Made by a program: the position numbers. From a virus (lineage: Duplodnaviria; Heunggongvirae; Uroviricota; Caudoviricetes), in the IMG/VR virus record IMGVR_UViG_2585427775_000005: 45,946 nucleotides of DNA. One strand, given 5' to 3'. This document shows positions 1-6,000 of this stretch, one piece after another; the stretch's first letter is position 1, and the number at the start of each line of letters is the position of its first letter.

Positions 1-3000
1 TCAAATAACCAACTTAACCCATTCCTGACCTCGAGTATCGTTATAGCGATCGGTGGTTGCCTGGACTTTATGTCCTAGTAATGTTTTTGTATCGATACCC
101 TGTGCACGGTACAGCCGTTCTGATAGAGAGCGTTGTTCATGAAATGTTGGCGGAGTTTTTCCTGCTGGTGGAATTATCCCAGCCAGATCCCGTGCTTTGG
201 CAAAGTAGTCGCTCAGGTTGTCTTTACTCATCGGCTTCGGTTGTTTCTGGTGCCGACTATGGATTAGATATGGACTTAATATTCTGTCTCGGCACCCATC
301 AATAACTTCTTTTAACGTTATCCCAATGGCATCACAGCGTAGTGTAAGCGGTAACGCCAGACGCATTCCGGTTTTTCCCTGGGTGATATGCAAGTGTTCG
401 TTCCACACATCTGAAAAACGCATGTGGCAAATGTCATCACGGCGCTGACCAGTAACAATCGCAAGAAGCATTGCGTTACGGATAAAGTGTTTTTCAGGCG
501 TTGCATTGTAAATTTTTTGCCAGTCTTCCATGGTGAGCCTGGCTCTGGTTACTTTAGGGATCGGTTTACGGGTAGCCTCCGGAGGATTCCATCCAGGAGG
601 AACTTCCCCTGCATGCTGTGCTTCTTTATAAATATCAACCCATAATCCACGATTTACTCTCGCTGTGCTGACCATGTCTTTATCCAGCCACTCATCCAGT
701 ATTAATGCAAAGTCTCTTACTTCCAGTTCTTTCAATGGGTGGTTTCCCAGACGGGAAACCAGGTATGCAGCCATTCGAGTTTTTTCTTTGTGAGTTGTAG
801 CCGCAATATCTCCATTTTTCAGTCGCGTGTCCTGTATTTTCAGATATCGATCAACCCATGCCTTTAATCTGATACCCCGACGTTTTGTTGCTGACGGACT
901 TTCATCAATTTTGCGCATGAAATATTCAGCTTCTGCTGCAGCTATTCGCTGATTGGCTGTGGAAGCGATTTTTTCTGCCTTACCTTTGTCTGTTCCGAGT
1001 CCGTGAAATTTTCCAGTCACAGGATTTTTATACTGGTAGTAAACTCTGCCAGTTCTGCGATCAAACTTTTCGTAAAGACCGGCTACGTCAGTGCTGTTTT
1101 TTCGTGGCCTCGGTGACATGAGTTAAAATCTCCTTCAGTGCATCATCATCGCCAGTATGAATTTCCGGCGCAATTCCCGTTTCACCAGGCCCAACAAATA
1201 CTGCTCGGTGATCTATCAGCCAACGCCCACGAATTTTTTGTGGTCTTGGAACGATGTATCCAAGTTTTCCGTATTTCACCAGGGTAGTGTTTGTTATTGG
1301 GAGACTGAACCGCTTAGGTTTCCACTCGTCGAGCGTAATCAGGTACTGTTCGCTCATGACCATCACTCCGGAACGCGCCAGTTGCAGAATACCAACCACA
1401 ACCGGCGACGGTTGAACATTAAAAATCAGCCTGATTCGGGAACAGTTTTTGCCAGATAGCTGAAACGTATTTTGCCTGGTAACGGGCGTCATCAAGTGCA
1501 TTATGGCGCTCACCTTCGAATGGAATAGCCGTTCTGGCATCGAAGTCTATGGCTTTCCCCAGCTCAACGATTGTGCGTACATCGCGATCGTTGTAGTAAC
1601 GCCACGGGCAGGGGATCCCCTGCCGTTCGTATGAACGGCGCAAAATCGTGTTGTCGAAGTTGGCTCCATTTCCCCAGACCTGAACAAAAAATTCACCGGA
1701 GTTTTCGTCGATAAATTCCCGCAATTGTAACAGTGCATCATCTAACGGGATTTCATCGGTCATAATGGCAGATTGCGCTTCGCGTGATTGCTTAAGCCAC
1801 CATTTAATGGTGTCCCGATCAATGACTCCGCCAGCAGTTTCCAGATCGATAGTCTTACTAAATTCCGGTCCCATATCTCCGGTTTGCGGATCGAAAAATA
1901 TTGCACCTATTGAGATGATCGGGGCATCAGGATTTTTTCCCATGGTTTCAAGGTCGATCATTAGATGGTCACACGTCCTGCTGGTGGATGTGATTTCACG
2001 ATGACCGTTCACCTTAATTAAGAGATTTGCTGTCTCGCCTGTTTCATTATTGCCATTGGCATGTTGATCGCCTTCGGTGCACTCCTTGTTCGGGAGTCCG
2101 GCACTTTCCATTTCCTCCGGATCTTTTTCCCGGGCTTCATCCTGGCTTTCTTCGTTGAATGTCTCCTGGTATGTTGCGTCGCCCATCACCGCGCCACAGT
2201 CAGGACAGTTGCCGCCGCCGGTCTGACCGCAGGCTGTGCAGACTTTTTCCGGTTCCTGTTGCGCTACTGGTTCAGGCTGTTTCGTTTCTGGCTCGTTTTG
2301 TTGCGCATTTGGACTGTGTTGTTCCGCTTTATGGCCTTTCTGTTCCGTTTCTTGCTGGTTATGGTTCACCGAATCGCGGGTTTCAATCCCCTTCACCCAT
2401 TTTGGATCATTCGGGTCGCTAATCCCTTCAACAAATTCTCCGTGAGAAGCAGCCAGTAATTTATCTGCATTGACAGGATTTTTGGGTGGAATGTTTTTCC
2501 TGGCTTCATAGAGTTCTGCACGCAGTTTCTGATATTTCGCATCAACAGAATTTATCTGTGGCTGAGCATCCATCGACTGCGTGTCCTGATTATGTTCAGT
2601 TGTATCCGGTTCCACTGCTTCAGTCGTTGCCTGTTCATCTGCCATTGCGCCAGATGGCTGCGGTTTTTCTTCATCATCCTGTTTTCCTTCTTTTGTTACA
2701 CGCTGCGGGATAGGGGCAGAGGAGCGACCGCAGGCAATATCCACGATTTCCGGATCAGGGTTGGCATGATCGGTTTCGGTCAGTACTTTGTTCAGATATT
2801 CGGTAACACGGTGGGGAGTAGCCTCGATACCAATTGGTGCTTCTTTCACGGACGCAACTACTATCGCGCGGGAATAATCCAGGTGACCAGGCATGGCGAT
2901 GAATTTGTCACGAAAAACAGAAAAGGGCGGCTTATTCTCTGAAACGATTTCTTCAATGCGTTTGGCGTGTGCCGGATGTGGATTGTAAATATCGATGTCC

Positions 3001-6000
3001 ATTGAACGGGCCAGAACGCCAGCGGCAACGTCACGTTCCACTGACGCATCATCGTGGACAAAACCTTCACCGCGATCGGTAAGAATTCCTCCGCCAGCAT
3101 TAGCGCCGGACGGGGTGCGATTGATTTCAGATACGCAATTTCCCTTTGCCCACTCTTTTGTCAACAGCCCCTGATCAAGGTAGTCAGTCTTCATCCAGGT
3201 GGAAATGAACTTGTCGAATTCTGCCGGGCTGATACGGCGTGTTGTTGCGTGAGTGAATGCCTTTTCCACCGAATGCGCCAGTCTTCCAAGATGATGGTTT
3301 GTCAGCTTATCCAGCTCAGGATGCGAACGTACTGCAGTAAGCAGGCTCTGTATGTTTCCATCTTCCATATCCATTTCGATGCGGATCACGTCCTTGCGTT
3401 GTTCTGGTGTGGCGTGATGTTTGTATTTCTCGTCGAACTCCTGACCAAAGAAGTAGAGGTGCAGGAAGCGATGGGTAAGACTCAGGGTGGAGACGGGGAT
3501 TTCACATTCAGGGCAGTCATCGTTGCTGTCCGGGGATTCGCTTTTATCTGCGTTCTCTGTCTGAGAGTCACTTTGTTCATCGCAGTCACGGCTGACACCT
3601 GTAACAGCTTCGCCGCTGGTATTGTCAGTGCTGGCTGGTTTGTCCTGAACTGAGGGGGAAGGCGCTATAAATATCATTGTGATGCCATCTTCTCCGCCTT
3701 TTTCATAGCGGTTGCAGAATTCGGTATCAAACACACCTTCAGGCGGCAGGTCATTAACAATGGGCAAATTCACGCGAACAGGTTTTTTGAAATCCTCTTC
3801 GTCAAATCCAGCATCGTCCATTGCGACAACACCCCGTGATATTGCAACCGATAATTTTTTTGCTGTGCGCCAGTAAAAACCGCCTTTAATCCCAAGGCGT
3901 TTTCTGACTTTGTCATTTTTGGCTTCGTAATACAGTGCAATTTCTTCTTTATCAGTGCTCATTGATAAACCTCATAACTATTTTAAGGTTGTACGAATCC
4001 CTGCCATTGCTGGCATACTTAATCAACGGGTATGGTGTTAATATGGCTGGCGGGTTATCCAGCCGGTATTTCGTTATTCAGGTACAGCGATACTTTGTTT
4101 AACGGGAGACATTCACCGGAAATTTTTTGCTCGTCTCTTGCCTGATGGCAGGATTCTTTACTGGCATAAATTCCGGTAATCACATTCTGTGATTCACCCG
4201 TTATAAGAAAAACCGTCATCACCAGTGCAAATGCTGAAGTCATTGACATTCTCCGAAAATACCAAGTTCAAGAAGGGCAATTCTGGAGAGTATGGAATTA
4301 TCATTGAGAAGATAAGGCTCATATTTTCTCATCTTAATGGCATCTTCAGTAAACTCCCGGTTACTGAGCAGAATACCAATATCAAAACACCCTTCAGACG
4401 TATTAACGTTTGGTAGTGACGTTTCCATTATCGCGTCCTCAACAATGAATTTTGTTGATGCGGCGCCTGGTGCCTCCAGGTGACGTTAACCAGTTAACAA
4501 TTAACGTCGGAATACAGAAGGATGCCCGTTGCGCCCCGTAAAATACCACTTTACGGTTTTAACTGTTCCGCGTGCGCATAGCCGCATTCACCGCATCACA
4601 AAATTCACTTTAAAAAGGGCGGACATCAGTCAGCAACAAACCGATGCCGCCAATGGGTACACCACGAGGTTGCACTGGCTACACAACCGGAAGCGCACGG
4701 TCGAAGAAATTTAACGACAAGACTTATATGCAAAGAAACCTCTCCGTGCGCTTTCGTGTTATGCCATGACTTTTCAGGGTACATTAACCTGTGGAAACCT
4801 GTTTTTACTGGCGCTAATCAGTTGGCGTTTCTGGCTAACCAGCGATGCGCGCCAGCTTCGGTTTTAAACGTTTTACTTTTGGTATACGTCATCGCGGTAA
4901 ACGTGCCGTCCTGATTGGGGAAGACGCCGCACACCAGAGATTCGTTGTTGCCAAGATCGATAGTATCCATGTTGACCTCATTTCCCCTTAACGCCGGGGT
5001 AGCGGAACTGTTTGCTGAGAACACCGTGCGGTGTCTTGATGCAAGCAAGATTAGCCATGACTAACAATATGGTCAAGTATTTTTGTTTGTCATGGCTAAC
5101 ATTTTGGGCGACCAAAAAGATAACGCATTGATTGCGTTATCTTTTGTTTGTTCGTTGACGGGCTTTTAATAACTCTTCAAAGAGTTTGTTGAAATTTTTT
5201 ACTCGGGCGCGCATCTCGGTGAGCTGAGCATCCTGTTCTGATTCAGGCAATGCATTAAAAAGCTCAAGGAGCTCATGTTCTTTGGGGGATAGAGCAACTG
5301 GCTCCTCAATAGGTGGTGATGGCTGCTTGTCTTCATCGCCAAATAGAATCCATGTTGGCGAGCACTGCAGTACTTTGCTGAGGGCAAAAAGATTCTTTCC
5401 TGTAGGTTCGCTATCATCCCGCTCCCATTGTGAAACCGATACGTGAGAAATTTTCAGGACTTTAGCAAGAGACCTTTGGGTGTATTTGAGGTTTTTTCGG
5501 CGATATCTAATGCGTTCGCCAATGGTTAAATTTTTTGTATCCATAGTTAGCTAATGCTAAATCTTATTGACTATGTTTTTGTTAACATCTATTTTGTTAG
5601 CCATGGCTAACAATTAAGGTGCTTTAAATGCTTAAAACTGACGCACTTTTGTATTTCGGTTCAAAAACAAAACTTGCACAAGCTGCTGGTATTCGTTTGG
5701 CTTCGCTTTATAGCTGGAAAGGGGAGCTAGTACCTGAAGGTCGCGCGATGCGCCTGCAAGAGGCATCCGGCGGGGAACTTCAGTACGACCCCAAAGTTTA
5801 TGACGAATATCGTAAGGCAAAGCGGGCGGGGCGGTTGAACAATGAAAATCACCCCTGAACAGGTTTGTGAGGCTCTGGATGCCTGGGTGTGCCGACCAGG
5901 AATGACACAGGAACAGGCGACGATATTAATCACGGAAGCATTCTGGGCTCTGAAAGAACGCCCGAACATCGATGTTCAACGCATCACGTTTAATGATGGC

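Follow-up and report, generated by a model that had tools for sequence, protein, structure and literature searches.

A lambdoid prophage gene joining a RecE-like N-terminal region to a DEDDh exonuclease domain, with no annealase partner

Introduction

The RecET pair is a workhorse of recombineering. Its nuclease, RecE, is encoded in the Rac prophage of Escherichia coli K-12, in a lambdoid early-left operon with the canonical order intR - xisR - rcbA - ralR - recT - recE - racC - ydaE - kilR. RecE ends in a 5'-3' nuclease of the PD-(D/E)XK type (about residues 564/606-866, PDB 3H4R), and the function of its N-terminal two-thirds is still listed as unknown (PMC11611040). The subject of this work is a prophage gene, here called exo, in which this N-terminal part is joined to a nuclease of another class, a DEDDh exonuclease domain. 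The gene lies at 1419..3962 on the minus strand of IMG/VR record IMGVR_UViG_2585427775_000005, a Caudoviricetes sequence of 45,946 nucleotides, which was analysed over its whole length and is named the window in the following. A first-pass annotation had described the encoded protein of 847 amino acids (aa) as a RecE-like region fused to a DEDDh domain and without an annealase partner, and had proposed a non-canonical or decayed recombination module.

Among the enzymes related to the nuclease part, the structure of T4 DexA has been solved (PDB 8KEL/8KEN), and exonuclease activity on DNA in vitro is described for both DexA and EcD (Kang et al., NAR 2025, PMC12153337). DexA is a 227-aa stand-alone protein from a lytic phage; EcD ('HREX'; GenBank HAK9828821.1), also stand-alone, was reported to digest T4 DNA containing 5-hydroxymethylcytosine (5hmC) and to protect cells when plasmid-borne (PMC12153337). 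Prophage DEDDh exonucleases of the TONDO / ISG20-like kind, which have auxiliary domains, protect against RNA phages (PMC13344964); they belong to a different DEDDh subfamily, selected at <500 aa, and can be used as an analogy only. As regards gene position, the K-12 Qin prophage contains ydfE (pseudogene b1577), found in the same slot and order, dicB-ydfD-ydfE-(int); its equivalence to exo is based on synteny and on a 'RecE-like' region. In K-12, IS2E cuts ydfE short, and no function is known for it; the window gene is full length.

Domain architecture of the fusion protein

The gene has an ATG start and is defined by an open reading frame (ORF) call together with Pfam, NCBIfam and PHROG matches. 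Its product is RefSeq WP_032185406.1, named 'exonuclease' or '3'-5' exonuclease', and the gene is 100% identical in at least 7 complete genomes, E. coli GE3 among them. The two-part organization is confirmed by Pfam, NCBIfam and BLASTP; however, the RecE likeness, initially assigned to a central region, extends over the whole N-terminal 649 residues. Pfam places Exonuc_VIII (PF06630) at aa 56-196 (E 1e-12), and aa 1-649 match positions 1-602 of the 877 in the NCBIfam exonuclease VIII equivalog profile (NF007259), with a score of 873 that lies below the cut-off of 1269 for a full-length RecE equivalog. In BLASTP against K-12 RecE, aa 58-649 align with RecE 50-591 at 56% identity, and no similarity is detected past aa 649.

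The C-terminal part, aa 666-837 (1452..1967, minus strand), is a DEDDh exonuclease domain, DexA/EcD/Rv2179c-like and of predicted 3'-5' polarity. It matches the Rv2179c-like family PF16473 along profile positions 2-177 of 177 (E 2e-67; 226.8 bits versus a gathering cut-off of 27). The motifs noticed at first reading are real: DLET corresponds to aa 670-673 and H-x4-D to H820...D825, with D770 completing the DEDDh set. These five residues (D670 and E672 in the Exo I D-x-E, D770 in Exo II, H820 and D825 in the Exo III H-x4-D) are invariant across 10 sequences, including T4 DexA. The PD-(D/E)XK nuclease of RecE is thus replaced by the DEDDh domain; indeed, the Pfam scan of the protein gave a weak RNase_T match and no PD-(D/E)XK nuclease domain (PF12684-like), and tblastn with the PD-(D/E)XK domain, RecE 600-866, found nothing in the window.

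T4 DexA is the sole solved structure matched by sequence (8KEL, E 1.5e-6), and Rv2179c was not matched at E<=0.1 in the PDB sequence search. DexA belongs to the same Pfam family and all five of its catalytic residues align with those of the window protein, but identity to the window domain is only 25-28% and DexA has extra loops. Of the two DexA residues proposed for 5hmC recognition, W152 corresponds to Y790, in a column that varies among C, Y, W, V and R in close homologues, and D169 to A804, in a loop of uncertain alignment; the tetramerisation residue D90 is kept as D742, whereas in EcD it is A78. Among the relatives of the nuclease domain that have been studied by experiment, EcD is the closest, and it too is found on mobile or phage DNA. 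A 189-aa EcD-like ORF, recovered from viral contigs via the published EcD primers and carrying A at residue 78 as in PMC12153337, is 39% identical to aa 668-840 of the window protein (183 aa, E 3e-35). EcD differs from the window protein in its length of 189 aa, in having no RecE scaffold and in its neighbourhood, beside a Dam-like methyltransferase. Judged by these alignments, the 5hmC specificity of HREX cannot be transferred to the window protein.

Stand-alone DEDDh exonucleases of 180-189 aa from enterobacterial prophages, such as P0038 and P0098, show 59-87% identity to the window C-terminal domain. Their first residue falls on M668 or a few positions ahead of it, and they occupy the same slot, last before xis-int, in E. 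coli and Salmonella, but they have no RecE scaffold. The genes found upstream of them in Salmonella are YfdP, DUF2303 and one of the DndB-like type; at L032:4743-5852 the DndB-like gene (PF14072) immediately precedes the exonuclease, together with YfdP/DUF2303 genes, a neighbourhood that hints at a link to DNA-modification sensing. An internal start at M668 of the window gene was considered and discarded, since no credible Shine-Dalgarno sequence is present and the sole purine-rich stretch is AGGA, about 13 nt upstream.

Cassette exchange and absence of RecT

In blastn comparisons with two IMG/VR prophages (L070 and L086) and with K-12 Rac recE, homology ends at window base 2017 in all three cases. 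This position defines the cassette junction (2016..2017, minus strand) at about codon 649, where DNA homology to PD-(D/E)XK-type recE ends and protein homology stops as well. The heads following the junction were surveyed in 80 viral-contig loci (IMG/VR) encoding a homologue of the RecE N-terminal region (RecE-N). A DEDDh head is found at 31 loci and a PD-(D/E)XK head at 46, the remaining 3 being truncated and not classifiable by head; an adjacent RecT match is present at 0 of the 31 and at all 46, although locus counts in this survey are not phylogenetically independent. The 46 matches comprise 39 K-12-like and 7 divergent RecT; the latter is a 367-aa protein encoded directly downstream, confirmed by PF03837 (E 7e-37) in locus L095. 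Seven PD-(D/E)XK loci had seemed to be without RecT, a view that was rejected when all seven were found to match the divergent 367-aa protein (61-100% identity). Also lar/ralR accompanies PD-(D/E)XK heads only in the surveyed loci. Pfam-annotated neighbourhoods give the same picture, RecT being absent from 8/8 DEDDh loci and present in 4/4 PD-(D/E)XK loci, and the Citrobacter DEDDh locus agrees.

The 814-aa DEDDh allele (989 contigs) always stands in the order dicB-DUF1482-exo-xis-int and the 915-aa PD-(D/E)XK allele always in the order kilR-ydaE-recE-recT-lar-DUF1187-xis-int; however, the PD-(D/E)XK locus L070 bears a dicB-ydfD upstream arm, which makes head type independent of the upstream module. 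On the evidence of the DNA junction, a cassette swap and not decay made the DEDDh form, the DEDDh domain being foreign DNA gained and not RecE sequence lost.

As annotated by RefSeq, the identical GE3 prophage has the neighbours first described, with xis downstream of exo; neither this annotation nor six-frame tblastn shows a RecT/Bet-type gene next to exo. The search was extended to the whole prophage with the same outcome. Nowhere in the GE3 annotation is a protein of the RecT, Bet, Erf or Sak type recorded. Ten early ORFs that are uncharacterised were scanned against PHROG and received replication, regulator, anti-repressor and HNH assignments only, and no annealase. Six-frame tblastn over 439 kb, made up of the window plus 40 related loci, at a threshold of E<=1 and with K-12 RecT, divergent RecT, lambda Bet/Exo/Gam, P22 Erf, Abc1/2 and the RecE nuclease domain as queries, gave nothing significant, the best E being 0.037 for an irrelevant match. 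Since RecT co-varies strictly with the PD-(D/E)XK head, the scaffold does not need RecT. At the scale of genomes, at least 2300 complete E. coli genomes hold DEDDh DNA without K-12-like recET.

Selection, prevalence and spread

Each of the 23 complete DEDDh-type genes from the viral-contig loci forms one uninterrupted ORF of 800-850 codons. A frameshift is present in one copy from a Stx phage. Six diverged copies were each compared with the window gene for the ratio of nonsynonymous to synonymous substitution rates (dN/dS). In the four pairs whose nuclease domains have a dS of 0.6-0.9, the dN/dS of this domain is 0.11-0.17, and the domain is under purifying selection; in the other two the nuclease domain is near-identical (dS 0.045 and 0.070), so that their values of 0.43 and 0.11 carry little weight. 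N-terminal segments mostly give 0.23-0.66, the comparison with locus L082 standing lower at 0.14 and 0 in two cases, and abrupt dS shifts along the gene are a signature of mosaic recombination.

Of 5426 complete E. coli genomes, 4078 contain a 602-bp DEDDh segment, at 8142 places and up to 7 per genome, a count that includes stand-alone and other fusion forms and can only overstate the frequency of the RecE-N fusion; the recE-nuclease + recT block occurs in 1750 of the same 5426 genomes, at 1841 places. Roughly three in four complete E. coli genomes (75%) thus contain DNA of the DEDDh head, with multiple copies in enterohaemorrhagic strains, and this DNA exceeds the recE-nuclease + recT block more than 2-fold in genomes and more than 4-fold in loci.

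The architecture is not confined to E. coli. An exhaustive HMMER search among 1.84 billion representatives retrieved 11,761 relatives; divergent RecE-N proteins (24-55% identity) carry PF16473 in some cases and PF12684 in others. DEDDh fusions 36-38% identical to the window protein include one of 823 aa in Citrobacter and one of 848 aa in Atlantibacter, with Salmonella in some source names. The Citrobacter fusion gene stands directly before xis-int, next to potC/potD, with no annealase. The E. coli prophage and this Citrobacter prophage (L134:8778-11934), whose fusions are only 36% identical, share a chromosomal site, with the integrase by potC/potD. The term 'decayed', used in the initial description, is contradicted by the intact copies, the low dN/dS and the conservation of the architecture in other genera; 'non-canonical' is appropriate, the PD-(D/E)XK head and RecT being absent and a DEDDh domain present instead.

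The RecE-like scaffold and its linker

The N-terminal 650 residues or so are common to K-12 RecE and the window protein, including three predicted domains, a linker motif of 11 residues and a zinc ribbon. An AlphaFold2 model of the scaffold, built on a 29-sequence alignment, has a mean predicted local distance difference test score (pLDDT) of 75.8 and predicts three folded domains at aa 4-100, 155-280 and 300-415, separated by acidic disordered segments. The first, an alpha/beta domain at aa 4-100 (3663..3953, minus strand; pLDDT about 81-89), lies partly within PF06630 and is the best conserved part of RecE-N, with the motif PVRVN.P.V.DLP.EG.FD..FC.RYE; D71, P73 and E75 are invariant among homologues of 24-49% identity. 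It is followed by an acidic spacer at aa 102-150 (3513..3659, minus strand), predicted to be disordered (pLDDT <50), with 27% D+E and a variable, indel-rich length among homologues. The second domain, aa 155-280 (3123..3500, minus strand; pLDDT 77-90), is predicted to be helical and ends in the conserved GLL.KEW..GN, F252 and W271 being invariant; the third, aa 300-415 (2718..3065, minus strand; pLDDT 86-95), is also helical and shows high identity to K-12 RecE.

A Foldseek search with the scaffold model found no match in PDB or in BFVD at E<=0.001, and a PDB profile search matched C-terminal heads only, with none to the RecE-N scaffold; to judge from the model, this region is one without a recognisable fold. 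Residues 417-654 are predicted to form a long disordered linker, in which two conserved elements are located. One is the 11-residue motif at aa 513-523 (2394..2426, minus strand), kept in DEDDh-type and PD-(D/E)XK-type homologues alike; the other is a putative zinc ribbon of 24 residues at aa 575-598 (2169..2240, minus strand), lying in an acidic disordered stretch and common to K-12 RecE.

The zinc-ribbon motif, C-x2-C-G-x2-GG-x-CPDCG-x-V-x-GDATY, also ends a Dam-like DNA methyltransferase (L026:4465-5445, minus strand), whose gene is directly downstream of an EcD-like DEDDh gene in an unrelated phage contig, and it occurs as a separate 157-aa ORF in an E. coli prophage (L037:2116-2589, plus strand). 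It looks like a mobile module carried, on this sequence evidence, by three kinds of DNA enzyme. In the same E. coli prophage (L037:737-3127) three ORFs are found between DUF1482 and xis: the first, of 456 aa, belongs to a different N-terminal family with no Pfam match, the second is the 157-aa zinc-ribbon linker and the third is a 183-aa DEDDh protein overlapping the second by 14 nt. This trio may be either a split or frameshifted fusion of ~820 aa (cf. phrog_2082) or a natural three-gene version.

Other heads are also found on the scaffold. A 703-aa protein (P0126) is a RecE-N::RecT fusion (PF03837, E 1e-42), and nuclease-less RecE-N proteins of about 690 aa (P0369, P0290 and P0122) have, after the zinc ribbon, a conserved tail of ~50 aa with the motif …W-K-x-x-L-x-IAA-x-x-GLCANPAC….

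Genomic context

The prophage is complete and lambda-like, and is inserted between potC and potB; the first 25 kb of the window are 100% identical to E. coli GE3 (NZ_CP012376.1). The gene order is int - xis - exo - DUF1482(ydfD) - dicB - (DicF-like) - DUF1391 - dicA-like repressor, beyond which divergent dicC/ydaT/replication genes are found. The left arm is Qin-like, with dicA, dicC, DUF1391, a DicF-like element, dicB and ydfD. As in Rac, exo belongs to a lambdoid early-left operon upstream of xis-int; however, in Rac recE is followed by recT, lar/ralR and rcbA, none of which follows exo. At every DEDDh-type locus examined, exo is the final gene of this operon before xis-int.

Directly downstream of exo and in the same orientation is the excisionase gene (1088..1357, minus strand), annotated by RefSeq in the identical GE3 sequence; the 372-aa integrase (1..1119, minus strand) is assigned by ORF call and RefSeq annotation. 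Upstream, the ydfD-like DUF1482 gene (4055..4243, minus strand) and then dicB (4240..4428, minus strand), both from RefSeq annotation, belong to the same leftward early operon. A DicA-like repressor gene, identified by homology to the Qin dicA region (5137..5544, minus strand), adjoins the divergent early promoters presumed to control the operon. A promoter or terminator proper to exo was sought and rejected: the promoter scan around the gene gave a single weak 9/12 promoter-like site at 4007-3980, the count of such sites not exceeding that of shuffled controls, and terminator-like hairpins inside the coding sequence are uninformative.

Several RNA elements were noted in the prophage. A divergent DicF-like RNA at 4617-4665 (minus strand; 29 bits versus an Rfam gathering score of 48, E 6e-4), accompanied by a terminator-like hairpin at 4648-4622, and a weak STnc100-like match at 4451-4605 (minus strand), just upstream of dicB, occupy the place of dicF in K-12 Qin. 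On the plus strand, isrK (9013-9195; 52 bits) and a C4 antisense RNA (9248-9796; 70 bits) are directly upstream of an ORF6N/Ant-type anti-repressor gene, a layout corresponding to the P1/P7-style antisense-controlled anti-repressor, here within a lambdoid prophage. A sok/hokD type I toxin-antitoxin locus follows at 9899-10223 (plus strand); beside it, in the region 10326-11008 (minus strand), a RelE/ParE toxin is annotated as two overlapping coding sequences (10636-10893 and 10886-11008), together with a helix-turn-helix antitoxin, which suggests a frameshifted or split toxin. Three tRNA genes (Ile, Arg, Arg) at 15438-15686 (plus strand) are located after a DNA methyltransferase gene, and a full-length STnc100 small RNA (147 bits) is present at 17127-17327 (plus strand), upstream of a DUF6645 gene, as in Stx-phage late regions.

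Discussion

With moderate confidence, the gene is best explained as encoding an active, selected 3'-5' DEDDh exonuclease of the DexA/EcD clade, placed on the RecE scaffold by cassette swap, expressed from an early operon and working with no dedicated annealase. In the proposed scheme, an exchange at linker codon ~649 would have put the DEDDh domain, directly before xis-int, in the place of the RecE PD-(D/E)XK nuclease, recT, lar/ralR and DUF1187. The long acidic linker with its zinc ribbon would tether the nuclease to the three-domain RecE-N scaffold, and the enzyme would act on DNA 3' ends; both the 3'-5' polarity and the DNA substrate are most likely, by homology to DexA and EcD. As last gene of a leftward, pL-like and DicA-repressed operon, in the slot where lambda carries exo-bet-gam, exo would be made on induction or infection. 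With no dedicated annealase, it would not constitute a two-component recombinase of the SynExo type; candidate roles are the degradation of competitor or host DNA ends, counter-defence and end processing.

Some points weigh against this explanation. The full-length AlphaFold2 model is poor (mean pLDDT 57.7, and 42-72 in the C-terminal domain), probably through the presence of both DEDDh and PD-(D/E)XK heads in its alignment; in Foldseek the C-terminal model finds DEDDh enzymes (3'hExo, ERI2) as best matches, at E 0.2-3 only, so that the assignment to an RNase H-like DEDD fold rests on hidden Markov models and motifs, not on structure. For DEDDh enzymes the choice between DNA and RNA as substrate is not assignable from sequence, and PF16473 takes its name from the exoribonuclease Rv2179c. 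The timing of expression is read from gene order and operon position only, the loci of the head-type survey are related by descent to one another, a partner could act in trans, be it host RecA or the annealase of another prophage, and a literature search found no study of the RecE-N::DEDDh fusion or of its biochemistry.

The possibility of trans-acting partners is the core of a different explanation, in which the protein would be a recombination exonuclease that processes ends together with host RecA or with an annealase of co-resident prophages, the scaffold functioning as in full-length RecE. The gene is indeed in the exo-bet-gam / recET slot before xis-int, several lambdoid prophages are often present within one E. 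coli genome, a RecE-N::RecT fusion exists (P0126), and the 649 shared residues belong to a protein whose N-terminal region enhances linear-linear recombination (PMC11611040 citing Fu 2012). However, a 3'-5' exonuclease leaves 5' overhangs, whereas a SynExo annealase loads on a 3' tail (PMC11611040); moreover, the contrast between 0/31 and 46/46 loci with an adjacent annealase, the restriction of lar/ralR to the PD-(D/E)XK cassette and the >2300 genomes with a DEDDh head but no K-12-like recET make this role unlikely, and the label 'recombination module' doubtful. That the gene is simply a decaying, functionless remnant of recET is scarcely credible: RecT is missing, the K-12 counterpart ydfE is a pseudogene cut by IS2 and a Stx-phage copy is frameshifted, but the ORF is intact in the window and in the 23 complete viral-contig copies, its nuclease domain keeps the catalytic residues and a dN/dS of 0.11-0.17 in the four informative comparisons, the architecture is conserved across genera at 36-38% identity, and the DEDDh domain was gained as foreign DNA, which is no mere loss of RecE sequence.

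Substrate is the issue in two further proposals. If it were an anti-phage nuclease of the HREX kind, the protein would, like EcD, leave unmodified host DNA alone, degrade the hydroxymethyl-cytosine DNA of incoming T-even phages and protect the lysogen. EcD, at 39% identity, is the closest characterised relative of the nuclease domain, and both digestion of T4 DNA and protection of cells that carry it on a plasmid have been reported for it (PMC12153337). The window gene belongs to a prophage, DNA of its DEDDh head occurs in 75% of complete E. coli genomes, and defence against RNA phages is described for other prophage DEDDh exonucleases that have auxiliary domains (PMC13344964). Conversely, the proposed 5hmC residues are not kept (Y790; A804, in an uncertain loop), the tetramerisation residue lost in EcD is retained as D742, and the gene, as part of an early operon under repression, shows no promoter of its own that would be convincing. 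PADLOC-DB v2 gives a generic Cas-associated DEDDh match only (E 1.6e-5) and no match for the neighbours of exo, so that membership of a defence system on this basis was rejected. EcD is, besides, a 189-aa stand-alone protein from another phage context, and the proposal leaves the 650-aa scaffold unexplained; on balance, such a defensive function is improbable. Still less can be said for a 3'-5' exoribonuclease of the Rv2179c type, trimming for instance host or phage transcripts or small RNAs during the lytic cycle. PF16473 owes its name to the M. tuberculosis enzyme, a weak RNase_T match is present, RefSeq often labels such proteins '3'-5' exoribonuclease' and prophage DEDDh RNases exist (PMC13344964); but the only PDB sequence matches are to the DNA exonuclease DexA, with Rv2179c unmatched at E<=0.1, DNA is the substrate of the nearest characterised homologues and the scaffold is common to a DNA exonuclease, which renders an RNA substrate very unlikely.

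A broader idea, possible though rather speculative, is that RecE-N serves as a nuclease-agnostic delivery platform, made of three orphan folds and a mobile zinc ribbon and docking on a phage or host target. The heads would be interchangeable, namely PD-(D/E)XK with RecT, DEDDh, RecT itself or the short 50-aa tail, and the DEDDh form would be a lytic-phase weapon against the 3' ends of competitor-phage, host or defence-system DNA, not a recombinase.

The DEDDh fusion, already named in databases, is ordinary and very common in enterobacterial lambdoid prophages, and is mechanistically distinct from RecET. It represents a common, conserved and uncharacterised alternative to the RecET module in the slot that phages use for recombination modules. 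The same scaffold is under selection with a head of predicted opposite polarity and no annealase, which implies that the job of the scaffold is not specific to RecT-mediated annealing; if true, the delivery-platform idea would reveal the purpose of the N-terminal two-thirds of RecE.

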